From a virus (taxonomy: Duplodnaviria; Caudoviricetes): a DNA stretch of 64,000 bases. The number at the start of each line of letters is the position of its first letter. Position 1 is the first letter of the stretch. The stretch is taken from IMG/VR virus record IMGVR_UViG_3300027819_000001, positions 1-64,000 of that record. One strand, 5' to 3'. Under the pieces are notes generated by a model. That model searched no databases and was not told the origin of the DNA. It saw only the letters and a list, made by a program, of their open reading frames with translations. Positions 23,448 through 37,333 of this stretch are shown here, piece after piece. The position numbers were made by a program, and so were the translations under genes.

Positions 23448-24077
23448 TCAGGACTTAATATAGCTGTACAGCGCAATGTAAGGTGGCCTGTTCTCGTGCG
23501 GCAGGCCACCACCGGTAGGCTGCAATATGTCCTCGTTTCCGGAGTTGGCCGCATCTGCACCCCCCACAGCATCAACATCATTCGTTGGTGGAGATGTTAA
23601 ATGGACCTTGTTAGGTTGCAAAAGATGCGTGTGGGAGGGCATCTCTGGAATCGTGAGCGTGTGCTCCTTCTCACCACCGGTATCACCCAAGCTGTATTGG
23701 TCTCCGGCAAACGTGAGAAACCGATTGTTCAGGTTCGGAAGTCTGAAATTGTTGACGACATCCGACGCCGGTCCGTACTGGTCTCCGATGATATCCCACA
23801 GTGCGGAATATGTGATCTTTGAAACGTCCTGCCCATTGCATAGAAGCCAGTTTTCATCCTGGGCAGACGGAGCCGCTGAGATTCGAATATCACCTGTGTG
23901 GTAAACCTCACGAAGGAACGCAGGGGTGAGCTTTCCGATAGTGCTCCACATCCATTTGAAGAACACCCAGTCCTTGGCTGGCTTTGCGATCCAACTGTCC
24001 TGAACCTTGGTGCAGGCATCCGCATTACTGTTTGGGAGCAGCGCCTCGAACTCTGATGGTAAAACTGGACTGGCCAT
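23448..24077 (-). CDS. Phage tail-collar domain protein
   Basis: WLLCNGQ.VSK.TY..LW.IIG..YG...F.LPNL; GGEKEHTLTIPEMPSHTH; HENRPPYIAL. Confidence 0.9.
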   Translation of the reverse strand: MASPVLPSEFEALLPNSNADACTKVQDSWIAKPAKDWVFFKWMWSTIGKLTPAFLREVYHTGDIRISAAPSAQDENWLLCNGQDVSKITYSALWDIIGDQYGPASDVVNNFRLPNLNNRFLTFAGDQYSLGDTGGEKEHTLTIPEMPSHTHLLQPNKVHLTSPPTNDVDAVGGADAANSGNEDILQPTGGGLPHENRPPYIALYSYIKS

Positions 24078-24116
24078 GAACGGGAGTATTTACCCGTTCT
24101 CCGCAGGCAATCAACC

Positions 24117-24827
24117 TTAAACTGGAACGGCGGGATCGAACTGGAGTCCGAGAACAAGCGTTGCCTCAAGCCATTTTGGCATCCAACTCTTCTGCCTGAA
24201 GTTGTTTGCCAAATGAAAGCACGGCGATCTTTCCCACTCTCCTGGACCGTCTAAAGGATCTTTGTAGTTCCTCACCCAGTTGAGCCGATGGCACTTCGCA
24301 CGCTTCCTCAGAATGTGCATGTCTTGGATGTTTGGCACTCCGTTGACGAGATCCTCAAGTGGATGCCGGTCGCTATCCTCGATCTCGTAGTTCACCATGC
24401 ATTGGACAAGGTGATTCAATCCGGCAGCGTCCGCAGCCCAGATCCCAGGACCACCGTCGTGATGACCGCAGATGAGGCCATGCGTACCGAAGTCGGCTGT
24501 GACCTGTCTCGGAGTAAAGTCAAACCCTGCGTTTGGAAACACGTCGTAGTCCGCAAACAGGACAATCTCCCCTGGAACCAGAATGTGGGAGCAGCACCAT
24601 CGGATGAAGCAGTAATACTCGTAGAGCTTATTGTTCACTGATGGCCATTGATCGGCCTTCTTTGACAGCGGTCCAAACTGCCTGTGGTAGCAGACATCAT
24701 CCAAGCTGAGCACGCGAGGCAGGAACCCAGCCTTTTTCCACTGCCTCTTCCAAAGGTTGATCATCATCTGGCTATCCTCCGCAGAATCGCCACCATCGTA
24801 ATCTTCGTGAAACGTCAGGATTCTCAT
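24117..24827 (-). CDS. Putative GT-A-fold glycosyltransferase
   Basis: VLFADYDV (DxD), QDMHIL, CFHLAN. Confidence 0.6.
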   Translation of the reverse strand: MRILTFHEDYDGGDSAEDSQMMINLWKRQWKKAGFLPRVLSLDDVCYHRQFGPLSKKADQWPSVNNKLYEYYCFIRWCCSHILVPGEIVLFADYDVFPNAGFDFTPRQVTADFGTHGLICGHHDGGPGIWAADAAGLNHLVQCMVNYEIEDSDRHPLEDLVNGVPNIQDMHILRKRAKCHRLNWVRNYKDPLDGPGEWERSPCFHLANNFRQKSWMPKWLEATLVLGLQFDPAVPV

Positions 24828-25447
24828 CGTGCAAATCGGTTTACCACATCCTTGTTGAACACAACCTTGGTAGGAGTACCGGTACCAGCGTGTGGCCAGG
24901 TTGGAGCGTAACCGATGCGCATCACACAGCTTGGCCAGCGCATTACGTAGTCCGATCCGCGTTGGTCCTTTGAGACTCCGCAGCTCCTATCGTTGTCCTC
25001 GATGATGAACTTGCACGGAAGCTTTTGGGACTGTACGTGCTTCACAGCCTCATAGAGATGCCCATTGTCTTCGGCGCCATCACCAACGAAGCACCAGACA
25101 GATTTGCCGGTGTCCTTGAGGCCAAGTGCTAATCCGGCAGCAATCCCGCACATCCCTCCAAGGACCGAGGAGGACATGAAATTGATCTCACTGTCGAAGA
25201 CGAACATGCTCTTCCCAGTCCTGATCTTGCCTTCAAGCATTGCCTCACTCCCGCCAGTCAGCACGTAATGGTAGTGGCTACGGTGGTTCGACAAGACCCA
25301 ATCTCCTGGACTCACGAACGTGAATAGGTCGATCAACGCCTGCTCATTCCCTCCGCTGAGATGCATTAGGAACGGCAGGTCACCGGTCTCGAACAGATCG
25401 GCTACGCGCTTCTCAAACGCCATCAGACTTTCGGGTGTGTGTTTCAT
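24824..25447 (-). CDS. TPP-dependent enzyme, E1-alpha-like subunit
   Basis: HLSGGNE, SNHRSHYH, CFVGDGAEDNG...IEDN (GDG..N TPP motif). Confidence 0.9.
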   Translation of the reverse strand: MKHTPESLMAFEKRVADLFETGDLPFLMHLSGGNEQALIDLFTFVSPGDWVLSNHRSHYHYVLTGGSEAMLEGKIRTGKSMFVFDSEINFMSSSVLGGMCGIAAGLALGLKDTGKSVWCFVGDGAEDNGHLYEAVKHVQSQKLPCKFIIEDNDRSCGVSKDQRGSDYVMRWPSCVMRIGYAPTWPHAGTGTPTKVVFNKDVVNRFAR

Positions 25448-26538
25448 ACGAATGGATCCTCGTGCATATCCACCAACTGTTCAAAAAAATCAATCTTGCG
25501 GTGAGCCTTGCACTCATGGCGGCACACCTTTGAAGGGTCCAAATCCTTCCACTTCTTAATGTGCTCCGGTGATCCCCAGAAGTCGATGAACCGTTTGTCA
25601 GCCAGGGAACCAAGCTTGCCGTGCTCCGTATAGGCCGTATCGGTGCAGGCATAAACGCATTGGTCCGCCCCGATGACCGGCACGGTCGTCGAGTAGAGGC
25701 ACCGCTTGAATGGACGCTCCAGCTTCTTGGAGTTGTCGTCGAGCTTGTACGTCGAGTTGACGGAGAAGGTGCTGTCACAGAGTGACGTTATCTCCTGGAG
25801 TTGGGCCTCAACGCTCTCTTTGATCGCAGCGTGATATGCCTGGAAACCTTCCACCCAGACGGGAGAGAATCGGATGTTCTGAACCCCAATGCCCTTGAGC
25901 AGTTTCGAGAATTCGATCAGGCCAGTGCAGTTGTAGCGCGTGACGATGTAATTCACTCCAAGGTCGCACTTCGCGGGCTTAATTGTCGCGAAGAATTCCA
26001 GGTTTTTCATCACGCCAGCGAACGAGGACAGAGAAACATTTCTTGAATCCGCCATCGTTCGAGCATCGGTATAGTCGATACTCACACGAACCCACTTTCC
26101 CTGCCTCAAAATCTCCGCCCTTTCCCCGTTCAGGCTTTGACCATTCGTGATTGCCGATAGCGCGATTCCATTCTCAAGCGTCCTTTCCATGATTCGGCAG
26201 ATGCCTGGATGGATCAATGGCTCACCGCCTCCGGAATACGTGACCGCCTTCACTCCCATGGCTTTGAAGTCATCGAGAATCTCGATCATCTTCTCTGTTG
26301 GTATCACATCCCGCTCGTTCATTTCACCATGCATCCCGCCCTGGAGATGATCCTCCTGTCCATGATCCGATGGTCTTTTAGTCCCATCAGAAAATGTGCA
26401 AAAACGGCACGCGTGATTACAGCGATTGGTTGGCTTAACCCTCAGGTAAAGCGGAGGAGTTATCCGGTTTTCCCGGAACGCTTGGAGCTTCTCTGGATAC
26501 TGGACGATCTTGAGGTCGCTGTACTTGTTGTTGTTCAT
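25444..26538 (-). CDS. Radical SAM enzyme with SPASM/twitch domain
   Basis: CNHACRFC, SGGGEPLIHP, ITNG, VRVSID; C-terminal C...C...C-x3-C; start MNNNKY by ATGA overlap. Confidence 0.9.
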   Translation of the reverse strand: MNNNKYSDLKIVQYPEKLQAFRENRITPPLYLRVKPTNRCNHACRFCTFSDGTKRPSDHGQEDHLQGGMHGEMNERDVIPTEKMIEILDDFKAMGVKAVTYSGGGEPLIHPGICRIMERTLENGIALSAITNGQSLNGERAEILRQGKWVRVSIDYTDARTMADSRNVSLSSFAGVMKNLEFFATIKPAKCDLGVNYIVTRYNCTGLIEFSKLLKGIGVQNIRFSPVWVEGFQAYHAAIKESVEAQLQEITSLCDSTFSVNSTYKLDDNSKKLERPFKRCLYSTTVPVIGADQCVYACTDTAYTEHGKLGSLADKRFIDFWGSPEHIKKWKDLDPSKVCRHECKAHRKIDFFEQLVDMHEDPFV

Positions 26539-27077
26539 CGGACGTAAATGAGGTTGGCGACGGTTTGGTGGACAACGCGGTAACCATTGGATAGAAGGAG
26601 ATCGCGCAGCCGGAAGTCTTCTCCAATTCCTTTGGTGTTGTATTCGGCAACGATCACCCTTGGCCCATGAGCCATGTAATCGATCCCGGACATCACGTCG
26701 CACTCGTGCCCCTCCACATCAATGGAGATGAAGTCAGGCATGATTGGAGAGCATAGCTGCATGATTGGAATCGCATCCTTATGCTTCTTTGCATAGTCAA
26801 CTCTGGAGAGTTGCGGATCCGTAGGATTGAAATCAAATCCAACCTTTGGATGCGGAGATACGATGGCTGTCAGAAGTTTTCCAGGTCTCCAGAATTGTTG
26901 CCAAATCGGATCCGCATCCACTGAAATTCCTTCCCAGTCCTTGTCACGCAGAAATGCTGTATTGCTTCCTCTCGATGGGTGGGCTGCTCCGATATCCAGG
27001 TATCGTCCACCACCAAGCATAACCAGGTTTTCATCGATCCACTTGTCCTCTCCGTATTCAGAATAGTATTGCTTCAT
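26535..27077 (-). CDS. FkbM-family methyltransferase
   Basis: YSEYGED, YLDIGAAHP..GSNT, DFISIDVEGHE. Confidence 0.9.
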   Translation of the reverse strand: MKQYYSEYGEDKWIDENLVMLGGGRYLDIGAAHPSRGSNTAFLRDKDWEGISVDADPIWQQFWRPGKLLTAIVSPHPKVGFDFNPTDPQLSRVDYAKKHKDAIPIMQLCSPIMPDFISIDVEGHECDVMSGIDYMAHGPRVIVAEYNTKGIGEDFRLRDLLLSNGYRVVHQTVANLIYVR

Positions 27078-27856
27078 CTTGGTATCGTGACAGGTTCGGT
27101 TTTGTTTGCCAGCCAGTCGTGGCCAGCCGTCTCTGGCCAAAATTCATCGAGTTTAACCGGCCACACCGTGTTCGACTGGAGCTTTAGCCAGTTGGCCAGT
27201 TTGAAAGATCGATCACCGTAGTATCGTTCTTTGAACGCAACCTGCTCCTCAAACACGTAAGCGGGATGATCGAACACGAGTCCCATCGATGACGAGATGT
27301 CACGTTCCATGTGCTTTCCGTTCCATCGGATGACTGGGTTTTCGTGGCTCTGCCACAGCCCGCCACGGTAAACATGTGTTCTGATCCAGTCGTGCTTCAT
27401 TGGTTCGAACAGAAGTTCTATATCCATGCCGAGAAACGGTTTGCACAGGTATTGACCACGACCAAATCCATCGTACGAGAACAAGTCGTGAATCAGTTCG
27501 AGTTGTGATGCTGCCCAAAGCTCATCGGCGTCAATCTCGTGGAGAACGTCGCCAACTGAAATCTTTCCGAGTGGCGCGTTGCACATCTCCACCTTGCCTC
27601 TCCAATATCGATTCTTTCGAGACACGGAGATATCCTTGCACAATATCGAATCGATGTACTCCGTGGTTCCATCTATTGATCTAAAACCGCTATGGTACTC
27701 CCGAGGAAATGGCTTACACCAACCAGTGCAACCGTGTGGCGCTGCTGGTCCCTCAACGATGTGCCAATGCCACGGACAGGAAAGCTTCGAGAACTCTGGC
27801 AGGTGATGCTTGATGAATGGCATCCCGTTCTGGACGATGGTGAAAATCTGGAGCAT
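27074..27856 (-). CDS. GT-A (GT2-like) glycosyltransferase
   Basis: IFTIVQNG, WHIVEG, SIDGTTEY, HEIDADELW, VFDH. Confidence 0.75.
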   Translation of the reverse strand: MLQIFTIVQNGMPFIKHHLPEFSKLSCPWHWHIVEGPAAPHGCTGWCKPFPREYHSGFRSIDGTTEYIDSILCKDISVSRKNRYWRGKVEMCNAPLGKISVGDVLHEIDADELWAASQLELIHDLFSYDGFGRGQYLCKPFLGMDIELLFEPMKHDWIRTHVYRGGLWQSHENPVIRWNGKHMERDISSSMGLVFDHPAYVFEEQVAFKERYYGDRSFKLANWLKLQSNTVWPVKLDEFWPETAGHDWLANKTEPVTIPR

Positions 27857-28374
27857 CAGTAAAGGTCTTTGAACTCCAGAATCGCTGCCGACTGATTCCT
27901 TGTCGCGGCATTGCGATACGCTCCGATCACATCATCTGGAGTGCGGGCCGAAAACACCGGAAAGCGAACCATGAAGTTCAGAGCGTCTGCAAAATTCTGT
28001 GTGTGCGTGGCGCCAGTGAACAGCGGCTTTTTCTTGTTCCCAACGACTATCCTAAGAATGACAGCAGGCTTGAACTGCCCATCGGACAGCGTCTCGATCT
28101 TATCCAGATGGTTCACGATGGCGTCCATGGCATTCGTCACGAAGTCGCATCGTTCAAAGTAGACCATTGGCTTGTACCCAAGCAGCGAGAGACCAATTGC
28201 CATTCCAACCATGAGGTTCTCAGCAACCGGAGTCTCGATCAACCTGTCCTCTGGCACTCCTGCCAGCGATCCTCCTGCCAGGCCATACTTCACGTTGTAC
28301 CCAATGAATCTCGCCTTCTCGTCCTTGGCGAACTCCAGCATGGCCTGGTTGATGGCTTCCTTGTACGTGCTCAC
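27856..28374 (-). CDS. TPP-dependent enzyme, E1-beta/transketolase pyrimidine-binding subunit (no C-terminal domain)
   Basis: IETPVAENLMVGMAIGLSL, DAIVNHL, GATHTQ. Confidence 0.9.
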   Translation of the reverse strand: MSTYKEAINQAMLEFAKDEKARFIGYNVKYGLAGGSLAGVPEDRLIETPVAENLMVGMAIGLSLLGYKPMVYFERCDFVTNAMDAIVNHLDKIETLSDGQFKPAVILRIVVGNKKKPLFTGATHTQNFADALNFMVRFPVFSARTPDDVIGAYRNAATRNQSAAILEFKDLY

Positions 28375-29144
28375 AGGTATCCTTTCGATTCGAGGTATTG
28401 TTCGCAGGCCGGTATGGTTCCGAAGTGTGGGAGCTTCTCCCCGTAGTCAACGTGAATGTCGTTGATCAGCATGATTCGCTCGGTGAACTTCCTCTGGTTC
28501 CAGATGTTGAACGTTGGCCATACAGGACCATTGGCTACGGCGATGATCGATTTCGCCATGAGAGAAAGAGAGCCGATGTCCGTAATCGAGTATCCAAGCT
28601 TTCGCGTGCATGGAACATGCGCATCCGTCATCGACGTGCATACCACAGTGTGCCCAGCAGCCGACATGCGCATTATCACCCTGTTCATAGCCGATTCATC
28701 CCACTGGAATTGGCTGCTCATCGGAGTGGAATTCAGCACCAGCCAGTCGATAGTACCGCCCGTCCATAGCGGATAGAGCAGAGACGGATAATCACACAGA
28801 AAGTCCGTCCTATCCTTAAACACCACCGGAATGCCAGCCTGTTTTGATTGGAATTCGAACCACCGAATCAGGAAGGCGATCACATCGAACCGCAGATCGG
28901 TTGAACTCCATCCAATCCCTTGAGGTCCGTCACCAATCCAGCAATTGATGGCGTCCGGTGGATGGTTCTCGGTTCTGACGAGTGCCACCTTGGTCCCATA
29001 GAGCACCGGCGCAAGCTGCATGTGATAATCCAGGTTGCAGTAGAAAAGCACTTCACTCTGGGGAATGAACTTCGCTGCCTTCCGTAGCCACAGGCAATGC
29101 CAGAAGCAGTCCCCAAGATGGAAATGGTTGACGTATGAGATCAT
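28371..29144 (-). CDS. GT-B (GT9/heptosyltransferase-like) protein
   Basis: HFHLGDCFW, INCWIG, IIAVANGP. Confidence 0.55.
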   Translation of the reverse strand: MISYVNHFHLGDCFWHCLWLRKAAKFIPQSEVLFYCNLDYHMQLAPVLYGTKVALVRTENHPPDAINCWIGDGPQGIGWSSTDLRFDVIAFLIRWFEFQSKQAGIPVVFKDRTDFLCDYPSLLYPLWTGGTIDWLVLNSTPMSSQFQWDESAMNRVIMRMSAAGHTVVCTSMTDAHVPCTRKLGYSITDIGSLSLMAKSIIAVANGPVWPTFNIWNQRKFTERIMLINDIHVDYGEKLPHFGTIPACEQYLESKGYL

Positions 29145-29830
29145 ACGGCTTCACCCATCGCGTTGAGGATGCTGTCCAGTTGGTACGGAGTCTTGATGCC
29201 GTGGAACATGTACGCCCCGCTCTTGGCATAGGCGAGCGCCTCATGGTAATACCCGTGCTCGAACGAGTTGGCGGTGTACGCAACCGGAGGAACAGTTGAC
29301 CTGAGGTTGTACATCCCAAGCCCCTCCTCTTCCGCAGCCGTCCCGAACATCCGATCCCAGTTCCCGGCCTCAATATCATCTGGAAATGTTTCCTGTCTCG
29401 AAACGATCTTCTCCATGGCTGGCCGGTGAATCAGGAACGGAGGATGGCAGAACCAATGCCCACGCCATCCGGTCCCTCCACAGGTCTTGTACTTGTCGTG
29501 GAACCATGACCCACGGATCTCCAGAGGATCTGTTCCCCAAGGAAAATCCTTCCGGACGCAGATCGCATCGTACTCAAAGATAACGAACCGATCGTACTCC
29601 GTCTTTGACAGGCACATCCGGCACATCGCCTTGAATCGCCTGTTCGCCTCAGCATCGTGATGACTGGGTGTTCCAAACCCAAGCTGTTCGTGGGATGTCT
29701 TCACCAAAGCCGTAGAAGGGCACCAGACAACGATTGGACTGCCGTGGGCCTCCCAGTATGGCAGATGCCTGTCAAACGTCTCCTGAGCCTCTTTATGGGC
29801 CATTACGACGATTAGGGTGTTGTTGGTCAC
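29141..29830 (-). CDS. Putative GT-A-fold glycosyltransferase
   Basis: FVIFEYDA, NWDRMF, YMFHGIK. Confidence 0.55.
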   Translation of the reverse strand: MTNNTLIVVMAHKEAQETFDRHLPYWEAHGSPIVVWCPSTALVKTSHEQLGFGTPSHHDAEANRRFKAMCRMCLSKTEYDRFVIFEYDAICVRKDFPWGTDPLEIRGSWFHDKYKTCGGTGWRGHWFCHPPFLIHRPAMEKIVSRQETFPDDIEAGNWDRMFGTAAEEEGLGMYNLRSTVPPVAYTANSFEHGYYHEALAYAKSGAYMFHGIKTPYQLDSILNAMGEAV

Positions 29831-30501
29831 AGGGGTTTGCAGAGGATATCGAACTGAGGTCCGGTCATTGGCTCATTCAGGATGTTGTCGAATGAATACC
29901 GTAGAACGGTGAGCAGCCCGAGGAGTTCGTCAGAAGATGATCCGGCAGCCTCCAACGCTCCTTCGTTGACCTCGATCAGCATCACAGGACGGCAACGTTT
30001 GATTGTCTCCCAGGCCCCAAGCAGCGCCTCGCATTCAAATCCCTCCAGGTCGAGCTTGATGAAATGAACCGTCTCAAGCTGATACCTATCCAAAGGCTCT
30101 CCACCTCGACTGGTCGCAAAAGGATCCTGCTTTAACGTGATCCTTGTTGCCCCGGAATTTGGATTCGGCTCGATCCAAACTGTCGATTCGTGATGGGTCA
30201 GCGCCTCTCCGTATCGCTTAACCTGAGGCAGGTTTTTAGTGTTGTGTTTGAGACACTCAAACGCAATCGGATTCGGCTCCATCGCATGGACAGTCCCAGT
30301 CAATCCAACCTTCGCTGCATACGCCACCGTGTGATCCCCGATGAACGCCCCACCATCCACAACGACGCCACCCTCCGGGATGTATGGCAGCACGCGCTTG
30401 AGCAGCCACTGGTCATGATCCAACCGGCCATGCTTCTCGATCCACTTGCTGATTCCTTCATCTCCGTCGATAACCGCTATTCCATTCGGGAGGATCTTCA
30501 T
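29827..30501 (-). CDS. FkbM-family methyltransferase
   Basis: VVDGGAFIGDHT, AMEPNP, FIKLDLEGFE, PVMLIE. Confidence 0.9.
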   Translation of the reverse strand: MKILPNGIAVIDGDEGISKWIEKHGRLDHDQWLLKRVLPYIPEGGVVVDGGAFIGDHTVAYAAKVGLTGTVHAMEPNPIAFECLKHNTKNLPQVKRYGEALTHHESTVWIEPNPNSGATRITLKQDPFATSRGGEPLDRYQLETVHFIKLDLEGFECEALLGAWETIKRCRPVMLIEVNEGALEAAGSSSDELLGLLTVLRYSFDNILNEPMTGPQFDILCKPL

Positions 30502-31226
30502 TTGAGTATCGCCTCCAGTTCCGCCTTGATCTTGTCCGTCAACCCGCCCCAACTCCAGTGCTGATTCAACAACGCTTTGGGCAGGTACTCCAACGTGTTG
30601 ATAAAAGTGAATTTGTCGCTCATCTTGGCCATGCAGTAGGCCCCAAGTGCGTTGAACTCGGAAAACTGGCCCCTCGGTTGGCTCAGGACGTAATCAGCGA
30701 ATGGCATGTGATGCACCTTTTCGATGTGCTCCCGCAATCCACGGAGCGCCTCCGGTGTACTCATGATCGGGAACCGCCTCATGCACTCGAACTCGATCTT
30801 CATCCCGAGAGCTTTCTCGGTGATCGGTTGCCACGGCGTCTGAGCCTTCCCATCCACCACAAGGGCCGAATAAGGAGTGTACCAGATGATCGGTTTGCCA
30901 TCCTTCAACCAACTCTCAGGGGTATTCGACGTGTTGAAGCAGTTGTCTGAGTCCACGTAGAGAATATGCGTCATCCCAGGACAGAACAAATCAGCGCAAA
31001 TCTTCACGACCTGCTGGTAGAGGTACCCGTCCTTCTGCTGCTTGTCCGCCGTCTCGATGACGATCATGTCGTCCACACCGCCAAACGGAACAGCAGCACG
31101 GTCGCCATGAGGAACGCACAGCACCACGCCTTCATACCCGGAGCAGAACTTCTTGATCGACCGGAGGCAGTACGCCAGCCATGGAAAGTCCTTCCGATAC
31201 GATTTGATGAAGATGACGGTTTTCAT
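30498..31226 (-). CDS. GT-A-fold glycosyltransferase-like (DUF6492-like)
   Basis: YLYQQVVK, ILYVDSD, FSEFNALG. Confidence 0.65.
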   Translation of the reverse strand: MKTVIFIKSYRKDFPWLAYCLRSIKKFCSGYEGVVLCVPHGDRAAVPFGGVDDMIVIETADKQQKDGYLYQQVVKICADLFCPGMTHILYVDSDNCFNTSNTPESWLKDGKPIIWYTPYSALVVDGKAQTPWQPITEKALGMKIEFECMRRFPIMSTPEALRGLREHIEKVHHMPFADYVLSQPRGQFSEFNALGAYCMAKMSDKFTFINTLEYLPKALLNQHWSWGGLTDKIKAELEAILK

Positions 31227-31420
31227 TGCACTATCGGCGGCCTACCGAGTCCTCCTGGAACGTATTTTTTTTGCCCAGGCTTTCGGTGGTACTCTCTCAT
31301 CTTTAAGGCACATGAGTTGCAAAGGCCCTTGTAGTTCTCAATCTTTCCATCAGCGCATTGCCTACACAATCCGCGAGAGATTCTATCCAACTGCCATTTG
31401 AGTTGCCTAGAGATTTTCAC
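31223..31420 (-). CDS. Small basic Zn-finger-like protein
   Basis: CRQC...CNSC; GTGA/ATGA coupled. Confidence 0.6.
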   Translation of the reverse strand: MKISRQLKWQLDRISRGLCRQCADGKIENYKGLCNSCALKMREYHRKPGQKKYVPGGLGRPPIVQ

Positions 31421-31593
31421 GCTGAGAACGCCTCCTCGCTGGATGAATCATGCCGGACCGTTTCCCGTCGAATAAGCACTCCAAAGCCAGCGCCAATCAG
31501 TTTTACCTCAGGATCCTTGATCTTCTCGCTGATGTGAAAGGCGTGGCCTTTACCGGCCTTCTTTCCGTATGTCTTTTTCCATGTCGGCTTCAT
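31417..31593 (-). CDS. 58-aa hypothetical protein (MKPTWKK...)
   Basis: Read manually; coupled at both ends. Confidence 0.55.
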   Translation of the reverse strand: MKPTWKKTYGKKAGKGHAFHISEKIKDPEVKLIGAGFGVLIRRETVRHDSSSEEAFSA

Positions 31594-31700
31594 TCTTTAT
31601 TCCGTTTCCAATGAACAAACACGTAGATAATGGCGATGACCAGAATCACTGCTCCAATCAAGCGTTCAATGATGTAGATTTTGGCAGCAAGCTCGATCAT
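31590..31700 (-). CDS. 36-aa single-TM peptide
   Basis: MIELAAKIYIIERLIGAVILVIAIIYVFVHWKRNKE; ATGA-coupled at both ends. Confidence 0.55.
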   Translation of the reverse strand: MIELAAKIYIIERLIGAVILVIAIIYVFVHWKRNKE

Positions 31701-32350
31701 CTTATCATCCATTCGGTTCCATCAAAGTTCCAGCCATTCATCTTCTTTGTCAGCGCCCCGTGATATCCGAACTGTCCAGAGTAAACGGCGTGTTCGCAAC
31801 TGAACCTCTCCGCAACATTCGCCGGTGCGATCTTGAATCCGTTCTGCCTCAGCTTCTGTCCAAGGGTGATGCACGCGTAATAATCGCTCACCTTCACTGC
31901 CGGGTCCATCACGTTCGTCTGCGCCGCCACTGCCTGGCACCAGAGCTTTGATCGTATCGAGAACCCTCCATTCCCAACCTGGTTGTGCTGCTCTGGCCAT
32001 GGAGCCCCGATGTAGTCGTACTCCAGGAACTCCTTCCTCCACGCTGCCCGTGCCACAACACAGGCATCGTGTTCCTGGAACAAAACGAACTGCGTATCGA
32101 ACCATTCAGGCAATCGGGTCAATTGGTCAATTTCGTAGTCCAGCCGTCGAGGCTTGTGCTTGTGGTTCACCGGGATGATACCGTTCCGATGGCACTTGGC
32201 CTCGATCCCTTTGTTTGCCTCAAGGTCGGTCACGCACACCACCGCTCCGAACTCGACACAGCGCTTCGACCAGCACAGCGCCAGGATCGACTTCATCACG
32301 TTCGAGGTCGTGTCCAGGGTGAGCAGGGTTACTTTGGGGAGGGAGATCAT
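31697..32350 (-). CDS. DUF5672-like glycosyltransferase
   Basis: FQEHDA, WRKEFLEYDYIGAPW, VGNGGFSIRSK, FGYHG. Confidence 0.8.
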   Translation of the reverse strand: MISLPKVTLLTLDTTSNVMKSILALCWSKRCVEFGAVVCVTDLEANKGIEAKCHRNGIIPVNHKHKPRRLDYEIDQLTRLPEWFDTQFVLFQEHDACVVARAAWRKEFLEYDYIGAPWPEQHNQVGNGGFSIRSKLWCQAVAAQTNVMDPAVKVSDYYACITLGQKLRQNGFKIAPANVAERFSCEHAVYSGQFGYHGALTKKMNGWNFDGTEWMIR

Positions 32351-32595
32351 TGATCGTCCTCTAAGCTTTCAGCAGCAATAAAGATTAGCAGCAGTGGCCA
32401 GAACGGCACAAAAAGGAGGATCACAGTCACCACTTCCGAAATCGTGAGATCGATCCACTTCTTCTCGCAAGAATGATGGAAAAAGAAGAATGGCGATACC
32501 ATTCCAAGAACGAATCCGATGAAAAGATAGAAATAAAGGTATGTGATCATCGGTTCATCTCGCCAGCGTAATAGCCCACGCAAAATCCAGTGCAC
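32347..32595 (-). CDS. Small membrane protein
   Basis: Two hydrophobic segments (WP motif). Confidence 0.6.
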   Translation of the reverse strand: MHWILRGLLRWRDEPMITYLYFYLFIGFVLGMVSPFFFFHHSCEKKWIDLTISEVVTVILLFVPFWPLLLIFIAAESLEDDQ

Positions 32596-32614
32596 AATGC
32601 AACAATGAATACGG

Positions 32615-32779
32615 TCAATAGTAGCCTTTCGCTTTGTCGATTGCTATTGCGGCTTCCAATGCACGCCTCATAGGCGAATCGTCAGATCGTCCAATCCTTC
32701 GCTCGATTTCAGCATCTACCAGCGCCATGTCGCGCTTCTTTCTAAGCTTGGACACCTTTGATTTTTGGTTTGGATTCAT
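32615..32779 (-). CDS. 54-aa hypothetical protein
   Basis: Read manually; ATGA overlap with upstream gene. Confidence 0.5.
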   Translation of the reverse strand: MNPNQKSKVSKLRKKRDMALVDAEIERRIGRSDDSPMRRALEAAIAIDKAKGYY

Positions 32780-33489
32780 ACCTCAGGCAACTCCAAATGA
32801 TCCCCGCACACGTACTGCGCTCCCGGCCTCTGGATCATCGTCAACGGCGAGGACAGGTCCACTTCCACGATCTTTGGCATCTTCAACCCTTCCGCAATGG
32901 CTTCCAAGGCGCCCTGGTTGCCGATGAAGAGTTTGGCATTCCCGATGTACTTTGCCGCGTAATGAATGTTCGGACATGGAATGAACGGAATCTCGTTCTC
33001 CATTCCTCGTAAAAGATCGTCATACTCATCACTGAATCCAATAAACGCGCTTTTACCGGCGTACCTTTCAACGATTTTCGGCCATGGAAACCTTGGATTG
33101 TGCCGCCTCAACGTCCTGGATAGGATCACCGATGGACAGTTAAACACCTTCTCCTTTGGCAACCACGGCTCCGTCAGAATCTCCGGCCCAAACCCAAAGC
33201 TTCTCGCATACCTCTCCTGCAACGGCATGAACGGGTTCTGGTAAAGCGACGCTTGGTAGCGCCATGAGTCCAAATCGTATTTACAGGCTTGGCCGTGATG
33301 CAGCTTCACGTCTTTCACGTAGCCAGTGGCCAACAGGAGAGGCTTGATGTTGTCCACCATCGCCTGATCACACTTGACCCTGGTGAACTCAGCACGCGCA
33401 AGGAATAGTGTCCCGCCGCCAAGTGCTCGGATGGTTGGAAGGGAGTGGATCAAATCTCCCGCGTCGCCCGAGTGAACGTAGGTGCTCAT
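32776..33489 (-). CDS. GT-B (GT9-like) glycosyltransferase
   Basis: HSGDAGDLIHSLP, FIGNQG...AIAEGL. Confidence 0.7.
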   Translation of the reverse strand: MSTYVHSGDAGDLIHSLPTIRALGGGTLFLARAEFTRVKCDQAMVDNIKPLLLATGYVKDVKLHHGQACKYDLDSWRYQASLYQNPFMPLQERYARSFGFGPEILTEPWLPKEKVFNCPSVILSRTLRRHNPRFPWPKIVERYAGKSAFIGFSDEYDDLLRGMENEIPFIPCPNIHYAAKYIGNAKLFIGNQGALEAIAEGLKMPKIVEVDLSSPLTMIQRPGAQYVCGDHLELPEV

Positions 33490-33496
33490 CGGTCAC

Positions 33497-33799
33497 CTAT
33501 AGCGCCTCCCTCGCGTACCGCCTCAAACGGGAGGCTAGATTGGTCAACCGTTTCTTTTCCTCATCATTGTTCGCTGAATCAAATCCACGGACGTATATGG
33601 ATGCCTCCTTAATGTCCTTCCTGAATTCATCCAGGCTGTTCACAGGCGTCGCCACCAGCAATGGTTTCTTCGCCTTCTTCTCTTTCACTTGTTCTGTTTT
33701 CATAGTTTTCCGTATTCCGTTCACCGTTTCTATCTCTTTAATCTGACTGTCAATCCAGTCAGAAATCTCTTCCACTTCGGGCTTCAATCCCCATTTCAT
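33497..33799 (-). CDS. Hypothetical protein
   Basis: 100-aa ORF. Confidence 0.6.
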   Translation of the reverse strand: MKWGLKPEVEEISDWIDSQIKEIETVNGIRKTMKTEQVKEKKAKKPLLVATPVNSLDEFRKDIKEASIYVRGFDSANNDEEKKRLTNLASRLRRYAREAL

Positions 33800-33824
33800 G
33801 GCCCGGTTTGGTTCATGGTCTTTT

Positions 33825-34395
33825 TACTCTGCTCCTTCTTCTTTCGAATAAGGTGCATCCTGAGCTTGAAAGCAATTGGCAGGGCTCACCTTCTGGTACC
33901 TAAAGGCACCAGGAGCCGTGACCCGCTTTTCACTATCCCAAGAGTACGAATCCTGGGCTGGCAGAGTATCGCATATCAGTTCACTGAACCTGACTGGAGT
34001 GATTTTCGGTGCATCCTTTCGCAAGTGAAGTCGCGGAAGTTTTGTGCATCTCTGACGCCCCGCATTTCCGATTTTGAACGTTGGGATGAGCCCGATTGAT
34101 GCAGCCCTTTTGACGGATATTGTTAGGTGCCCTGTGAGGGAGATATTCCCCGGACCCACACGCGTACGTGTTGCCAAATGGTTCCGGTACGGTTTCTGAA
34201 GACTGATCCAGCCATTGTCAATGAACGGGTCAGAAGGCGGAGCAGGGAACATTTCCCGTATGTTAATGTCGCAGAAAACTGAAAGCAGGGAGGGTTTTCG
34301 GCGATCCCGTTTCAGGGCCACCCAGGAAATGTTTCCTGCTCCGGTAAGTGTCGTGCTTTCAGCTAATTGACGGACATTAATCCGACAACCAACAA
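33825..34395 (-). ncRNA. Candidate large structured ncRNA (~570 nt)
   Basis: 18-bp helix 34325-34342/34239-34256 crossing 8- and 9-bp helices; further long-range and local stems; promoter directly upstream. Confidence 0.5.
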
Positions 34396-34400
34396 GCGGG

Positions 34401-34428
34401 ACCGTAGCAGGTATTATTTTCATGTCAA
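34401..34428 (-). promoter_or_regulatory. sigma70-like promoter P2
   Basis: TTGACA(34428-34423)-16 nt-TACGGT(34406-34401); same -10 and spacing as P1. Confidence 0.6.
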
Positions 34429-34688
34429 GGTTTGAAGACACCAACCACCCAGCCTGGTTGGACAGCGCCTTTCGGAAACACGGTGATAACTGGCATCGAT
34501 TGGCTCTCATGCTGAAGAATCACCCGTTCACAAATCATGGCCATAGCCTCAGAATCACGCTGAGGTTGGATAACCCAATAGTGCAATCCTTTTGGTTTCC
34601 AAAACCCTTTTCCAATTGTTGGAGAGTGAAGTCCTGTTTTTTCATGAATGACAGCCCTTATCCTCGTCCTGCACTTTGGGCATCTCAT
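34425..34688 (-). CDS. Hypothetical Zn-ribbon protein
   Basis: MRCPKC start, ATGA overlap. Confidence 0.6.
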   Translation of the reverse strand: MRCPKCRTRIRAVIHEKTGLHSPTIGKGFWKPKGLHYWVIQPQRDSEAMAMICERVILQHESQSMPVITVFPKGAVQPGWVVGVFKP

Positions 34689-35575
34689 AACGTCTTGACC
34701 GCCTCCAGCACATTGCGTTTCGCAATGTCCCATGTCCTGGCCTTTGCCCAAGCGATCCCTTCGAGCCTGGTTTTCTCCGTCTCCTTCACGTCGATCACCA
34801 CCCGGCGCATCTCAGCAATGAGACTGTCCCCTGTAAAGGCCGTTAAACGAGCGGGAGAGCCCCTCAGAGCCATTTTGTTCACTGGTTGGAGTACCAGGCA
34901 CCCCGAAGCCATCGCCGCCGTGGAGGCCATTCCAAGGCCGTTCGGATCACAGGACAGGTAACAGTCGATGGATTGGTACCACTTGGCCATTTCATGCCAT
35001 GGATACCAAACCTTGGAATTGAGAGTGACCATGGAGGCATCCTGGCTTGATCCGAACGCCTTTCCAAACACATTTGGCACAATGAATGCGTTCTTGTGTG
35101 TCTTGCGCTGGTCCAGTCCGAATACGATGTGGCGGCGGCGGCCTGGGAGTCTGTTTCGACGCGGGCAAGGAGGAGTTTCCCACATGAGATTCCATTTCTC
35201 AGGACTGTCGTCCGATACCACCGCATCACCTGCCGTGAATATCTCAGGAGAATAGCCAATCGGAAACCGCTCTCCAATCTCAAGAAGCTCGGTATTCGGA
35301 TGCAATGGAGGATGCTCAATCGTGATACCCTTTGTGATGAACACCTTCGTCGCCGGTGAGCACATGTTGCCAGCAGGCCCGATCAGAACCTCTGGCGTCC
35401 CATCGAACGGCTTGCCAATCCTCTCCCGGATCATGTAGTCCGCCTTCTCCGGCATCTTCAGTGGGTTCAGCACAACGTCGATCCCAGCCTCCAACAGCCA
35501 GGACATTACCTCACGACTCAGGATTCCCCAGTCCGAGTTGTCCAGGTAGGAACGTAGCGATAGGCGGGAGATCAT
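34685..35575 (-). CDS. GT-B (GT4-like) glycosyltransferase
   Basis: WYQSIDCYLS...GLGMASTAAMASGCLVL; RTWD. Confidence 0.7.
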   Translation of the reverse strand: MISRLSLRSYLDNSDWGILSREVMSWLLEAGIDVVLNPLKMPEKADYMIRERIGKPFDGTPEVLIGPAGNMCSPATKVFITKGITIEHPPLHPNTELLEIGERFPIGYSPEIFTAGDAVVSDDSPEKWNLMWETPPCPRRNRLPGRRRHIVFGLDQRKTHKNAFIVPNVFGKAFGSSQDASMVTLNSKVWYPWHEMAKWYQSIDCYLSCDPNGLGMASTAAMASGCLVLQPVNKMALRGSPARLTAFTGDSLIAEMRRVVIDVKETEKTRLEGIAWAKARTWDIAKRNVLEAVKTL

Positions 35576-35778
35576 TTCGACTCCTTTGGTTGTGGAACCC
35601 CTGGAACGACGGTCCAGGTTCCAAAGCGTGACTTGTCCATGAAGAACAATTCTCCATCATCACACAGCGCGAATATCGCTCCATCGCACTCAGTTTCTGA
35701 GTTTTCCGAGATTTGAGCGATTGCGATCTGGATGATCTTCCTGGATGGAAGGAGTGGATTCGGTCCTGATAATTTCAT
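35572..35778 (-). CDS. Small hypothetical protein
   Basis: IFALCDDG..F...W..VP; coupled. Confidence 0.65.
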   Translation of the reverse strand: MKLSGPNPLLPSRKIIQIAIAQISENSETECDGAIFALCDDGELFFMDKSRFGTWTVVPGVPQPKESK

Positions 35779-35963
35779 GAGTTCAGCGCGATTTGGAGCG
35801 CAATCTGAAGGCCAGCAACCTTGCCGCGAGCGTAGTGCTCTTTGACGATGTTGCCGGAAAGCTTCTCTCCAGCCACTTCAACCTCAGCTTCGTCGTACGC
35901 CTCCCTGAGTTCGCTTTGGATGGCGTAGATTCTGGAGCCGCTGAATTCAACTTTGTCGCTCAT
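35775..35963 (-). CDS. Small hypothetical protein
   Basis: Coupled ORF. Confidence 0.6.
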   Translation of the reverse strand: MSDKVEFSGSRIYAIQSELREAYDEAEVEVAGEKLSGNIVKEHYARGKVAGLQIALQIALNS

Positions 35964-37312
35964 TCGGCCTCCTTCTGCTGAACCGCCCCATCCTCGATCA
36001 CCACGGTCACTTCCTTGCCGTCCGATACCCTCTCAAGCCACACCTGGGCGTCGTGTTCCTTGGCCAGTTGCCCCAACAGCTTCAGGCTGTCCGGATCCAG
36101 CAACGATCCATCCCGCACCAGCAGAACCCGCAACTTCGGATTCAACGCCAGTCCAATGGCAACGGACACCCTCAGTTGCTGTGATGACGACGCCTGGCAG
36201 AACGGAAGGCCATCCAGCGTAACCCCACCGTCCTCGTCGAACGACAACCCTGGAACAGGGAACTTCGATTCCGCCACAGCCTTCTTCTTGTCCTCGTCGA
36301 TCTTATCGATCTTGGCGGTGAGTTCGTCGGACTGCTTGGACTTGGCCAGCATTGCCTGTTCGGCAGCTTCTCTCGCCTTGTTCGACATGAGCTTGCCGTT
36401 GATCTCCTTGGCTTTGAGGACCTGCTCTTTCAGTTCGGTGTCGGTTGCATCGACTAGACCTTCAACTTCACCCAACGCAGTTTCGTGCAATAACTTCGCT
36501 GCATTCAGGGCTTCCTTTGGAACTTCCAATTCATTCGTCGCCCTGATCAGCAACTCCTCAGCCTTCTGAAGCTCAAGCTTTAGTTGCGTTACCCTCACAG
36601 CAAGATCATCCACTTTCATCTGCTCTTGCTGAAGTTTGTACTCAGCATTGAACACGCCCTGCTGCTTAAGTTGAACGGATGCCCGGATTGCATCGTTCGC
36701 CCTGTTCTGCTCTGTAACCTTCCTCATCTCCGCATAAATCGCCTCAATCGAAACCTCCTCCTTCGGCAATCCTTGGTGAAACTCCATCCCGGAAAGCTGT
36801 GCCCGAATCTGCGTAACAGTCCGGTTGATTGCCGTCCTCTCGGTGTAGAATCCGGCCCGCTCCTGGTCCAGCTTCGTGAAGTCCAGCCCCACAATCCGTT
36901 TTAAGGTGTCTGCCTGCTCCTCAGGGCTCTGTCTGCTGAATTCCAGGGGATCAAAGCTCAACTTTCCGACCAGCTTGTCCAGGAGGGCCTGGGGGCTCTT
37001 AAACACAGCGCCCTCTCCGTTCGACACGGTGAGGTTTGATCCTCCACTCTCGGTGAACGACCGGGTGACGATGATATCGCCAAGATCGATCCGAACGAAA
37101 CCGCCTTTGGTTCCTTTCCTCAATACCTTTGGTGGGATGCCAGGGGCGCCTCCAAGCGCGTAATAGATCGCGTCGAGGCAGGACGACTTCCCTTGATCAT
37201 TGCGACCACCGATCACAATGAGGTTGCCGTCTTTGTCGGGGGTGATTTCAACGGCGGTGAGCCGCTTGATGTTCTCCGCCGTTAGGCGAAGAATCTTTGA
37301 AGATGCTTCCAT
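35960..37312 (-). CDS. SbcC/Rad50/SMC-like ABC ATPase with coiled coil
   Basis: Walker A GRNDQGKS, long coiled coil, ASSSQQLR signature, VLLVRDGSLLD. Confidence 0.85.
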   Translation of the reverse strand: MEASSKILRLTAENIKRLTAVEITPDKDGNLIVIGGRNDQGKSSCLDAIYYALGGAPGIPPKVLRKGTKGGFVRIDLGDIIVTRSFTESGGSNLTVSNGEGAVFKSPQALLDKLVGKLSFDPLEFSRQSPEEQADTLKRIVGLDFTKLDQERAGFYTERTAINRTVTQIRAQLSGMEFHQGLPKEEVSIEAIYAEMRKVTEQNRANDAIRASVQLKQQGVFNAEYKLQQEQMKVDDLAVRVTQLKLELQKAEELLIRATNELEVPKEALNAAKLLHETALGEVEGLVDATDTELKEQVLKAKEINGKLMSNKAREAAEQAMLAKSKQSDELTAKIDKIDEDKKKAVAESKFPVPGLSFDEDGGVTLDGLPFCQASSSQQLRVSVAIGLALNPKLRVLLVRDGSLLDPDSLKLLGQLAKEHDAQVWLERVSDGKEVTVVIEDGAVQQKEAE

Positions 37313-37333
37313 AATCGTAGTCCGTAAGCCGTT
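37313..37333 (-). promoter_or_regulatory. Shared upstream motif, copy 1
   Basis: AACGGCTTACGGA-CTACGATT-ATG. Confidence 0.55.

Follow-up and report, generated by a model that had tools for sequence, protein, structure and literature searches.

The 64,000-nucleotide stretch of DNA analysed here (the window; positions 1 to 64,000 of IMG/VR record IMGVR_UViG_3300027819_000001) belongs to an 81.5-kb phage genome recovered from groundwater metagenome runs. A run of sugar-transferring and sugar-tailoring genes at 24117-35575 raises the question of what these enzymes make together and on what acceptor their product is placed. The first-pass annotation had proposed a methylated, possibly branched glycan built on the virion. 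Our analysis, which covered the families and folds of the enzymes, how far a cassette is conserved, the order and fusion of genes, and gene neighbourhoods, partly confirmed the underlying observation and partly supported this interpretation.

Organization of the gene cluster

The gene content of the cluster is real, and with 14% of the genome devoted to sugar-transferring and sugar-tailoring enzymes it is large for an 81.5-kb phage. Every ORF in 24117-35575 lies on the minus strand, consistent with the late-strand location reported earlier. The reported start/stop coupling was also borne out: from 31593 down to 24117, 12 genes are linked by 11 successive overlapping junctions (4 nt, with 1 nt at one), where for one FkbM gene we manually chose as start the ATG at position 30501, which overlaps the upstream stop. 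No promoter or terminator signals above chance were detected within the cluster.

Several small ORFs showed no family match: two of 58 and 65 aa with overlapping start/stop (31223-31593), the second carrying CxxC...CxxC; one of 54 aa with a 4-nt overlap with the upstream stop (32615-32779); and one of 100 aa (33497-33799; coding score 0.196). A Kyte-Doolittle scan indicated a single membrane protein in the cluster, a product of at most 82 aa with two hydrophobic segments (32347-32595). The approximately 860 bp at 33824-34684 contained no convincing gene, as the codon-usage score of its longest ORF was 0.005, against 0.08-0.25 in the longer genes of the cluster; there was no Rfam match, and the RNA fold z-score was -2.9, from 20 shuffles only.

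Glycosyltransferase-like genes

The first-pass annotation had counted about eight glycosyltransferase (GT)-like genes. Fold comparison or transitive homology upheld five of them (GT9-like twice, and GT-A, GT2-like and GT4-like once each), whereas the DUF5672 gene, the sub-threshold DUF6492 candidate and 24117-24827 were not. Two further GTs reported elsewhere did not reappear, with zero matches in genome-wide searches with PF00535, PF00534 and PF01075. The GT9, GT4 and GT2 assignments in the cluster fail Pfam models, and two of them come from ESM Atlas comparisons only.

The GT-A-fold candidate at 29141-29830 (229 aa) gave an AF2 model with a pLDDT of 89.8. Foldseek returned 376 PDB matches at E<=1e-3, and all among the matches listed were glycosyltransferases; the best were chondroitin synthase GT domains and GT6 and GT31 enzymes, with E values down to 1e-8. 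Its E86-Y87-D88 motif was invariant among six homologues. For the divergent GT2-like GT-A protein at 27074-27856 (260 aa) there are 611 homologues, and many lie within multi-GT proteins of 500-4000 aa, as domains joined to others of the GT9, GT2 or Methyltransf_24 type. PF00535 (Glycos_transf_2) is matched by the homologous region itself in two of the homologues (P0126 and P0141).

A compact GT9-like candidate at 32776-33489 (237 aa) had no Pfam match and was assigned with ESM Atlas: its closest clusters were viral, one being labelled putative glycosyltransferase, with a TM of 0.76 to a viral PF01075 cluster, a TM of 0.72 to a 597-member DUF5672+GT9 cluster and a feature score of 0.95 to a GT9 cluster. 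Its N-terminus, GD-L-I-H-S-L-P, is what we take to be a motif of GT9 enzymes. The GT4-like GT-B candidate at 34685-35575 (296 aa), likewise placed by ESM Atlas only, showed a feature score of 0.96 to viral GT clusters with Glycos_transf_1 and a structural TM of 0.72-0.76 to GT4 clusters; it had no Pfam, PHROG or NCBIfam match and was an orphan among 5.8 billion proteins.

The DUF5672 protein at 31697-32350 (217 aa; PF18922, E 6e-18) is encoded once in the genome and has 32% identical homologues within Synechococcus phage sugar clusters. A possible GT-A-like protein at 30498-31226 (242 aa) scored 17.9 bits (E 0.0018) against PF20102 (DUF6492), short of the 22.9-bit cut-off, and this match was absent from the genome-wide search. 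The last gene of the coupled run, 24117-24827 (236 aa; coding score 0.118), had no match in Pfam, PHROGs, NCBIfam, the PDB or phage tblastn; a D-Y-D motif appears to follow a hydrophobic strand. On another viral contig (L163), a 26% identical homologue of this gene adjoins a homologue of 29141-29830. All candidate GTs are soluble.

A conserved four-gene cassette

Pfam and NCBIfam upheld the radical SAM enzyme (rSAM), the TPP alpha/beta pair and both FkbM methyltransferases. One FkbM protein (29827-30501) matched PF05050 over its full length (E 2.4e-15), and a shorter FkbM-like protein (26535-27077; E 4.8e-6) matched the C-terminal half of the model alone. The pyrimidine-binding TPP-beta subunit at 27856-28374 (172 aa) matched PF02779 (Transket_pyr; E 2e-8) and NCBIfam pyruvate dehydrogenase (PDH) E1 beta (E 4.5e-21), with an E-T-P-x-x-E-N block conserved in 61 sequences. 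The diphosphate-binding TPP-alpha subunit at 24824-25447 (207 aa) matched PF00676 (E1_dh; E 2.6e-10) and NCBIfam PDH E1 alpha (E 8e-21), with GDG...EDN invariant in 26 sequences. When the TPP-alpha family profile was compared with the PDB, PDH E1 alpha scored E 6e-17 and DXS only 2.5e-6; since PDH E1 alpha rather than transketolase is closest among solved relatives, pyruvate C2 chemistry is suggested. The rSAM at 25444-26538 (364 aa; PF04055, E 3e-16) has a twitch-like auxiliary cluster region, with SPASM/twitch families as top NCBIfam matches, CX3CX2C and four C-terminal cysteines invariant in 61 sequences, and BlsE as its closest solved relative (E 6e-5).

The gene for a GT9-like GT-B transferase (28371-29144; 257 aa) is the first of a conserved cassette, new here, that also comprises TPP-beta, rSAM and TPP-alpha; hundreds of further phages have it as well. 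Relatives of TPP-alpha numbered 732 proteins; separately, they were detected on 238 IMG/VR contigs and in about 55 prokaryotic species (GTDB genomes; 43-56% identity), many of them DPANN archaea. Among 161 loci fetched, beta was present in 148, rSAM in 116 and the GT9-like gene in 71. Of 80 viral loci, 52 show the order seen in the window (GT9-like, beta, rSAM, alpha), a count that overstates independence because most belong to one lineage. Where the TPP subunits are split, rSAM lies at most three genes away in 92 of 108 loci; beta and rSAM are fused in three archaeal genomes, and alpha-beta fusions occurred 16 times. Beside a fused TPP alpha-beta gene, 10 of 27 loci have an SDR, and cyanophages S-SM2 and P-TIM68 have a Zn-ADH, which suggests that rSAM may serve as a redox partner.

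The 81.5-kb phage carries the GT2-like gene and the short FkbM gene inserted within the cassette. An independent lineage of approximately 33-kb phages holds the cassette and a GT2 gene between head and tail genes, in the order portal, major head (phrog_283, E 2e-29), 99-aa ORF, GT2, cassette, four small genes and tape measure. Prokaryotic genomes carry the cassette inside surface-sugar-type clusters. Of 48 genome loci, 21 contain GDP-mannose-4,6-dehydratase-like genes, and in L006 such a gene stands between beta and rSAM. A further neighbour resembles an HldE-type heptose kinase/nucleotidyltransferase; in the cyanophages, genes for a phosphoheptose isomerase, a kinase and a nucleotidyltransferase are close by. 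The cassette GT9-like transferase has a heptosyltransferase fold, with WaaC and WaaF as best structural matches. These NDP-heptose and 4,6-dehydratase neighbours and this fold point to the sugar context of the cassette.

Proposed pathway

A glycan-building, methylating and possibly branching pathway, as proposed in the first-pass annotation, fits the evidence of five GTs, two FkbM proteins, rSAM and the TPP pair. The cassette probably serves to synthesise and transfer a branched sugar of an unusual kind, and its chemistry is likely pyruvate-derived C2 branching of a keto-sugar followed by transfer; PDH-like pairs are known to add two-carbon branches to 4-keto sugars (PMC4425429, PMC10338323). 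From the enzyme families and their contexts we infer substrates, step order, rSAM role and acceptor as follows. The cluster would be a cytoplasmic glycosylation and sugar-tailoring pathway fed by host nucleotide sugars. Pyruvate would be decarboxylated on TPP by the E1-like heterodimer, which would then put the two-carbon unit on the keto group of a sugar, most likely of heptose or 6-deoxy type. The rSAM may be the redox or radical partner of the heterodimer, making or reworking the keto intermediate, and the GT9-like enzyme would transfer the product. No 4,6-dehydratase, epimerase or nucleotidyltransferase was found in the window, so the source of the keto-sugar is assumed. The surrounding GT9-like, GT-A, GT4-like, DUF5672, possible DUF6492-like and second FkbM proteins would join the cassette enzymes in producing a short, methylated, branched oligosaccharide, whose acceptor would most likely be at least one virion protein, glycosylated in the cytoplasm late in infection. 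As a whole explanation, a cytoplasmic branched-sugar pathway with a virion-protein acceptor is tentative, at somewhat below an even chance.

Flanking genes and acceptor

The cluster had been placed between adaptor/vWA genes and tail genes. The tail side stood: a tail-collar domain is encoded at 23448-24077 and a virion structural protein at 21357-23438. The adaptor did not, as the gene at 35960-37312 encodes a Rad50/SbcC-like ATPase whose Arthrobacter phage counterparts are annotated as DNA repair or MRE11-associated; it is accompanied immediately upstream by a vWA protein and a Metallophos-domain protein (39010-40533). By sequence, the upstream flank resembles Rad50/Mre11 repair genes rather than head or adaptor genes, and searches for head, portal and capsid genes in the 81.5-kb phage recognised none. 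With these repair-like genes, an integrase encoded in the genome, and homologues of 24117-24827 and 29141-29830 beside an integrase in L163, the statement that the glycan is on the virion was not sustained as made.

The virion is nevertheless our tentative choice of acceptor, nearly but not quite an even prospect. It is supported by the tail-collar gene, co-oriented with the cluster, which lies 39 nt upstream; by the soluble GTs in a genome in which the Kyte-Doolittle scan found no polytopic membrane protein; and by the lack of a thymidylate-synthase-like hydroxymethylase in the complete genome. By analogy, the approximately 33-kb phages, with the cassette and GT2 between head and tape-measure genes, offer the best, if indirect, support for a virion target. 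Moron genes can occur within late operons, so position alone is no proof of a virion role.

The same enzymes and chemistry could instead act on the envelope of the host, with the LPS core or O-chain, the capsule or an S-layer protein as acceptor, which we consider rather unlikely; the outcome would be surface remodelling against superinfection or against progeny sticking to debris, or lysogenic conversion. GT9 is the LPS heptosyltransferase family, to which the top structural matches WaaC and WaaF point, prokaryotic cassettes lie among surface-sugar genes, the cluster includes one small membrane protein, and such a reading has been given to pelagimyophage and cyanomyophage GT clusters that adjoin tail-fibre genes (PMC7029224). 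The integrase and the L163 arrangement also fit lysogenic conversion. However, no polytopic membrane protein resembling a flippase, polymerase, ligase or GtrB is encoded in the genome, the cluster sits inside a long minus-strand block approximately 19 kb away from the integrase, its genes are translationally coupled with promoter and terminator signals not above chance, and the approximately 33-kb phages show no obvious moron boundaries around a cassette held between head and tail genes.

Hypermodification of phage DNA with a glycan to escape restriction, akin to T4-like glucosylation or multi-sugar 5-hmC glycans, would suit the repair-like upstream neighbours, the solubility of every GT and the diverse DNA glycans built by phage GTs, as summarised in PMC12619734 (citing Pyle et al. 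2024). The missing hydroxymethylase, the lack of a match to any DNA-GT family, and the location of archaeal and bacterial relatives in NDP-sugar clusters and of small-phage relatives between head and tail genes make it highly improbable. It is also improbable that the TPP/rSAM enzymes are not sugar-branching but form a mini-transketolase or DXS-like supplier of sugar phosphate (e.g. a heptulose precursor) or make a non-carbohydrate product, with the GT-like genes independent. Such a role is favoured by weak DXS and transketolase similarity and, in cyanophages, by co-occurring genes for a phosphoheptose isomerase, a kinase and a class II aldolase, and the TPP/rSAM family has no enzymology; yet PDH E1 alpha/beta matches are better by at least 10 orders of magnitude, and tight coupling or fusion with rSAM and the GT9-like gene is unexpected for a central-metabolism supplier.

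Comparison with known systems

The TPP pair resembles the documented two-carbon-branch pairs AviB1/AviB2 (avilamycin), Pau11/Pau12 (paulomycin) and EvdU5/EvdS3 (everninomicin) in being a heterodimeric PDH-like TPP enzyme inside a GT and methyltransferase cluster, with no E2/E3 partner, and in being expected to pass a C2 unit from pyruvate to a keto-sugar (PMC4425429, PMC10338323); the likeness to AviB1/AviB2 is one of class and context. At 207 and 172 aa, the phage subunits are far smaller, with PP and Pyr cores only, and they are coupled or sometimes fused to a twitch rSAM, whereas avilamycin has AviO2, a non-haem iron enzyme. Their distribution takes in phages, DPANN archaea and a variety of bacteria but not the antibiotic clusters of actinomycetes.

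The rSAM shares with two sugar-active twitch/SPASM enzymes, the dehydrogenase BtrN and the decarboxylase BlsE, a CX3CX2C motif and four C-terminal cysteines, enough for one auxiliary cluster; its cysteine spacing presumably resembles that of BtrN, and its similarity to BlsE is weak (E 6e-5). Compared with WaaC, WaaF and the protein O-heptosyltransferase TibC, the cassette GT9-like protein is approximately 60-130 residues shorter with 10-14% identity, and unlike GT9 heptosyltransferases it does not match PF01075.

To call the pathway unusually elaborate for a phage was an overstatement, as sugar clusters of similar or greater size, NDP-sugar synthesis genes included, are present in the cyanomyoviruses S-H68, S-SM2 and P-TIM68 and in huge phages. 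GT clusters near pelagimyophage tail-fibre genes have already been described, and these phages and the T4-like cyanophages S-SM2, P-TIM68 and S-H68 similarly gather many GT and tailoring genes into a single block close to those for the tail or baseplate (PMC7029224). The TPP enzyme of S-SM2 and P-TIM68 is 47-49% identical, and the DUF5672 protein of the S-H68 group 32% identical, to the phage proteins. Unlike the window, the cyanophage clusters bring along genes for making NDP-sugars (GmhA, kinase, nucleotidyltransferase, epimerases and dehydratases) and encode a fused alpha-beta protein with Zn-ADH, without the rSAM and GT9-like partner, homologues of which were found in none of the cultured phages. 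Mycobacteriophages, as summarised in PMC12619734 (citing Freeman et al. 2023), have few GTs and no TPP or rSAM tailoring, unlike the 81.5-kb phage; their GTs decorate capsid and tail-tube subunits with glycans shown by MS, a precedent for the virion reading.

Genomic context of the cluster

The window spans the first 64 kb of a virus record that is 81,540 bp long, carries direct terminal repeats, and was rated 100% complete by CheckV. The cluster (24117-35575, minus strand) makes up 14% of the genome and is contained in a long minus-strand block running from ~47.6 kb to 6.7 kb. Cluster DNA gave no megablast match to 50,697 phage records; the window stretch was found in two groundwater metagenome runs (DNA), a possible source, with no RNA runs listed. 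The start/stop coupling described in the first-pass annotation was borne out by 11 consecutive overlapping junctions from 31593 to 24117. Scanning the cluster for promoters and terminators yielded fewer sites than shuffled sequence, and the single Rfam match over 23500-36500 was at chance level. The ~860-bp segment 33824-34684 was not convincingly coding (codon score 0.005 vs 0.08-0.25 for the longer genes of the cluster); it matched nothing in Rfam and gave an RNA folding z-score of -2.9 (20 shuffles). Either a decayed gene or a structured RNA may lie here. The cluster encodes only one hydrophobic protein, a small membrane protein with two segments (32347-32595).

A tail-collar gene starts 39 nt downstream of the cluster end, followed by a virion structural gene and then one for a head-decoration-like protein. 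Upstream, where adaptor and vWA genes had been proposed, the vWA part of the claim stood but the adaptor did not: a vWA and Big_2 protein (37361-39082) lies between a Rad50/SbcC-like ATPase (35960-37312; phrog_1499 E 3e-96; 36-40% identity to Arthrobacter phage 'DNA repair/MRE11-associated' genes) and a protein of 507 aa whose C-terminal part is a Metallophos domain (39010-40533). Mre11 and SbcD carry a Metallophos domain, and for the three genes at 35960-40533 taken together an SbcCD/Mre11-Rad50-type set seems a closer description than a head-tail adaptor fused to a purple acid phosphatase.

PF05065 and PF04860 detected no capsid or portal gene in the phage genome, nor did comparing the 598- and 815-aa ORFs with PDB sequences. 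Across the whole genome, a terminase was signalled only by a weak Terminase_6N match (14.3 bits, below cut-off) at 47920-48348. The plus-strand ORF that contains it (47815-49416) runs divergently to the long minus-strand block, and the 815-, 556-, and 598-aa ORFs beside it belong to no recognisable family. A tyrosine integrase is encoded at 4534-5406. On a 51.7-kb IMG/VR contig, the homologues of four window genes (2788-3648, the integrase, 24117-24827, and 29141-29830) are neighbours (L163:6994-10636); in that contig two cluster genes are thus associated with a lysogeny-type region. Pfam searches of the neighbouring genes on L163 and on a second related locus, L164, gave no match.

Glycosyltransferase and methyltransferase candidates

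About eight glycosyltransferase (GT)-like genes had been called in the cluster. Five of the eight calls held, so most did not fail fold recognition; of the remaining three, one is a DUF protein of unassigned function, one is weak, and one is without a match. Two more GTs said to lie elsewhere were not found genome-wide with GT2, GT1, and GT9 models. Six ORFs of 229-296 aa had no match in Pfam (E ≤ 10), NCBIfam (E ≤ 1), or PHROGs, and PHROGs gave no match for any of the ten cluster ORFs tested. Searches with tblastn against cultured phages returned nothing for 24117-24827, 28371-29144, 29141-29830, 32776-33489, or 34685-35575.

The product of 28371-29144 has a GT-B fold, and its nearest solved structures are GT9 enzymes. 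It did not match PF01075 at E ≤ 10, and a 16-sequence profile of its family had no significant match among PDB sequences, the GT9 entry 3tov reaching only E 1.3; we therefore describe it as GT9-like and not as a GT9 member. G11-D12 is invariant in the 16 homologues, and this Asp may correspond to the catalytic Asp (Asp13) of WaaC. The protein encoded at 29141-29830 was modelled with a pLDDT of 89.8 in a GT-A Rossmann-like fold. Foldseek retrieved 376 PDB matches at E ≤ 1e-3 with TM up to 0.70, all of the matches listed being GT-A glycosyltransferases, and an invariant E86-Y87-D88 follows a beta strand, giving ExD and not DxD. Two of its homologues (P0274 and P0276) sit on ~86.5-kb contigs.

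For 27074-27856 we found 611 homologues, mostly forming a single domain within multi-GT proteins of 500-4000 aa, with GT9, GT2, and methyltransferase fusion partners; in two homologues the domain itself matches Glycos_transf_2. This domain (~240 aa), for which Pfam has no dedicated model, recurs in proteins of up to 4171 aa (P0126-P0271), whose companion domains are GT9, GT2, Methyltransf_24, and pyruvyl-transferase.

The ESM Atlas was the sole basis for the GT assignment of two further genes. The product of 34685-35575, an orphan in a word-indexed search of 5.8 billion proteins and without a Pfam match, resembled GT4/Glycos_transf_1 clusters (features 0.96, TM 0.72-0.76), a single-source result that we treat as a lead; that of 32776-33489 grouped with viral clusters and GT9 (TM 0.76). 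No relation was detected by hhalign between the family of 28371-29144 and 32776-33489 or between the family of 29141-29830 and 24117-24827, nor by BLASTP between the DUF5672 protein and 24117-24827. The last of these had no match in Pfam, NCBIfam, or PHROGs, and the DUF6492-like call at 30498-31226 was reduced to a below-threshold match.

The remaining enzyme calls of the first-pass annotation, namely two FkbM methyltransferases, a DUF5672 protein, a TPP alpha/beta pair, and a radical SAM enzyme, were all confirmed. Pfam identified FkbM domains at 29827-30501 and 26535-27077, with PF05050 scores of 57.5 bits (29827-30552) and 27.3 bits (26535-27140) against a cut-off of 22.7; the second match covers the C-terminal half only (model positions 93-173). 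The DUF5672 protein, also identified by Pfam (31697-32350), had no match in a single-protein scan of IMG/VR, and the family is practically missing from the searchable literature.

A miniature TPP enzyme and a radical SAM enzyme

Pfam and NCBIfam assigned 24824-25447 (207 aa) as a PDH-E1-alpha-like subunit and 27856-28374 (172 aa) as an E1-beta/Transket_pyr subunit, NCBIfam scores of 74 and 75 bits lying below the family cut-offs of 394 and 321. Full-length PDH E1 subunits have about 320-365 and 325 aa, and we refer to the short pair as mini-E1. In the alpha subunit, G122-D123-G124 and E150-D151-N152 are invariant and form the GDG...EDN TPP motif, while E47 and E52 in the Pyr domain of the beta subunit are ≥90% conserved. 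The nearest solved relatives of the alpha subunit are pyruvate dehydrogenase E1 alpha proteins (E 6e-17), of which the match spans only residues 48-213; DXS was ten orders of magnitude weaker than PDH in this PDB comparison, and transketolase was absent.

For the radical SAM enzyme (25444-26538; PF04055 E 3e-16), a start at the ATG at 26538, which yields a protein of 364 aa, is preferable to the GTG of the long ORF. C40, C44, and C47 (CX3CX2C) as well as C280, C298, C339, and C343 are invariant in 61 sequences. Its best NCBIfam matches are SPASM/twitch families, and the four C-terminal cysteines would fit a twitch-type auxiliary cluster, with a spacing presumably like that of BtrN. The nearest solved relative is BlsE, a sugar-nucleoside enzyme.

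Distribution of the cassette

For the short TPP alpha subunit, 732 relatives of equal size were found, and a TPP-alpha alignment search recovered 238 IMG/VR contigs and, with 43-56% identity, about 55 species-level genomes, the latter including many DPANN archaea (Woese-, Pace-, and Nanoarchaeota) and also Desulfobacterales, Verrucomicrobia, Nitrospirae, and others. Among 161 fetched loci, homologues of the radical SAM enzyme were present in 116, of the beta subunit in 148, and of the GT9-like protein in 71 (62 viral). The order GT9-like-beta-radical SAM-alpha, which is that of the window, occurred in 52 of 80 viral loci, mostly from one lineage, and the radical SAM gene lay no more than three genes from a split TPP pair in 92 of 108 loci. 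Three DPANN archaeal genomes encode beta-radical SAM fusions of 546-552 aa (L101:932-2590, L125:10606-12246, and L106:10624-12267), and alpha and beta are fused in 16 loci. In the 735-kb phage LR756501, beta, radical SAM, and alpha genes are adjacent at 40-49% identity. The window cassette itself has a GT2-like gene and a short FkbM gene inserted between beta and the radical SAM gene.

A ~33-kb phage lineage, represented by L003 and some 50 IMG/VR loci resembling it, has a lambda-type portal, a P22-like coat, and the cassette together with a 563-aa GT2. The gene order in this lineage is portal (PF05136), major head, 99-aa ORF, 563-aa GT2, cassette, four small genes, and tape-measure, and the major head protein is P22 coat-like (phrog_283 E 2e-29). 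No paper describing the TPP/radical SAM/GT combination in viruses was found in the searchable literature.

Possible product and acceptor

In avilamycin, paulomycin, and everninomicin, 4-keto sugars receive their two-carbon branch from PDH-like alpha/beta pairs without E2/E3 (PMC4425429, PMC10338323). This precedent, the retained TPP motif, the conserved glutamates of the beta subunit, and the PDH relatives suggest that the mini-E1 pair decarboxylates pyruvate; the cassette would make and then transfer a heptose-type or 6-deoxy sugar with C2 branching or extension. Where fused TPP enzymes occur without the radical SAM gene, an SDR is a neighbour in 10 of 27 loci, and in S-SM2 (a Synechococcus phage) and P-TIM68 (a Prochlorococcus phage) the neighbour is a Zn-alcohol dehydrogenase; an oxidoreductase partner thus seems to be required, and the radical SAM enzyme probably fills this role and may supply the oxidation. 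No keto-sugar-forming enzyme was found in the window. Of 48 related genome loci, 21 had a GMD-like 4,6-dehydratase; in L006 this GDP-mannose-4,6-dehydratase-like gene lies within the cassette, between beta and the radical SAM gene. Several observations concern heptose: the GT9-like transferase of the cassette has a heptosyltransferase fold, the best structural match of a bifunctional neighbourhood protein is heptose-7-phosphate kinase plus heptose-1-phosphate adenylyltransferase, and the cyanophages S-SM2 and P-TIM68 carry phosphoheptose isomerase, kinase, and nucleotidyltransferase genes. Neither an epimerase/dehydratase nor a nucleotidyltransferase was found in the window, so the cluster must use host nucleotide sugars. 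A TPP/radical SAM chemistry other than sugar branching we judge very unlikely. The full proposal is itself speculative, and we give it a low probability: starting from pyruvate and a nucleotide sugar of the host, probably ADP- or GDP-heptose, mini-E1, the twitch radical SAM enzyme, and the miniature heptosyltransferase-fold enzyme would produce a higher, C-branched sugar and attach it directly to proteins of the virion.

As for the acceptor, we tentatively favour the virion. The cluster ends just upstream of the tail-collar gene and virion structural genes, every candidate GT is soluble with no polytopic membrane protein found in the genome, and the independent ~33-kb phages keep the cassette between major head and tape-measure genes. 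The upstream neighbours in the window, however, are Rad50/SbcC-like, vWA/Big_2, and Metallophos genes instead of an adaptor, and the PF05065, PF04860, and PDB sequence searches did not locate head genes of this phage. Modification of the host envelope is a somewhat less probable alternative. In its favour, the integrase and the adjacency of cluster homologues and an integrase on L163 fit lysogenic conversion, and similar pelagimyophage clusters have been read as modifying the host O-chain (PMC7029224). Glycosylation of phage DNA appears highly improbable, because no thymidylate-synthase-type hydroxymethylase was found in the complete genome.

Phage glycosylation bears on immune recognition, host range, and particle stability. 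The cassette is conserved and portable: viral contigs carrying it number at least 238, and prokaryotic species about 55. Should a C-branched sugar be carried on virions, viral protein glycosylation would gain a new class, and TPP and radical SAM enzymes a novel partnership, spread over hundreds of phages and DPANN archaea. A branched heptose-type product on virions would also extend virion glycosylation beyond actinobacteriophages and suggest a function for a gene set that DPANN archaea keep despite very small genomes. Even with the host envelope as target, the pathway would still add a new way of tailoring sugars to the repertoire of phage auxiliary genes.

Comparison with known systems

To our knowledge, known virion glycosylation systems comprise only a few ordinary GTs, and we know of no characterised example of mini-E1 plus twitch radical SAM chemistry. 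The cluster is like those of the AviB1/AviB2 type in that an E1-like pair lies within a GT/methyltransferase sugar cluster (definition in PMC4425429). The earlier description of the pathway as unusually elaborate for a phage was overstated, since other phages are known to have large sugar clusters; those of S-H68, S-SM2, and P-TIM68 include NDP-sugar pathways of their own, whereas the window cluster does not. What appears unusual here, on the sequence evidence, is that the cluster occupies 14% of a mid-sized genome, has no match to canonical GT models, and contains the cassette of a GT9-like enzyme, mini-E1, and a twitch radical SAM enzyme.
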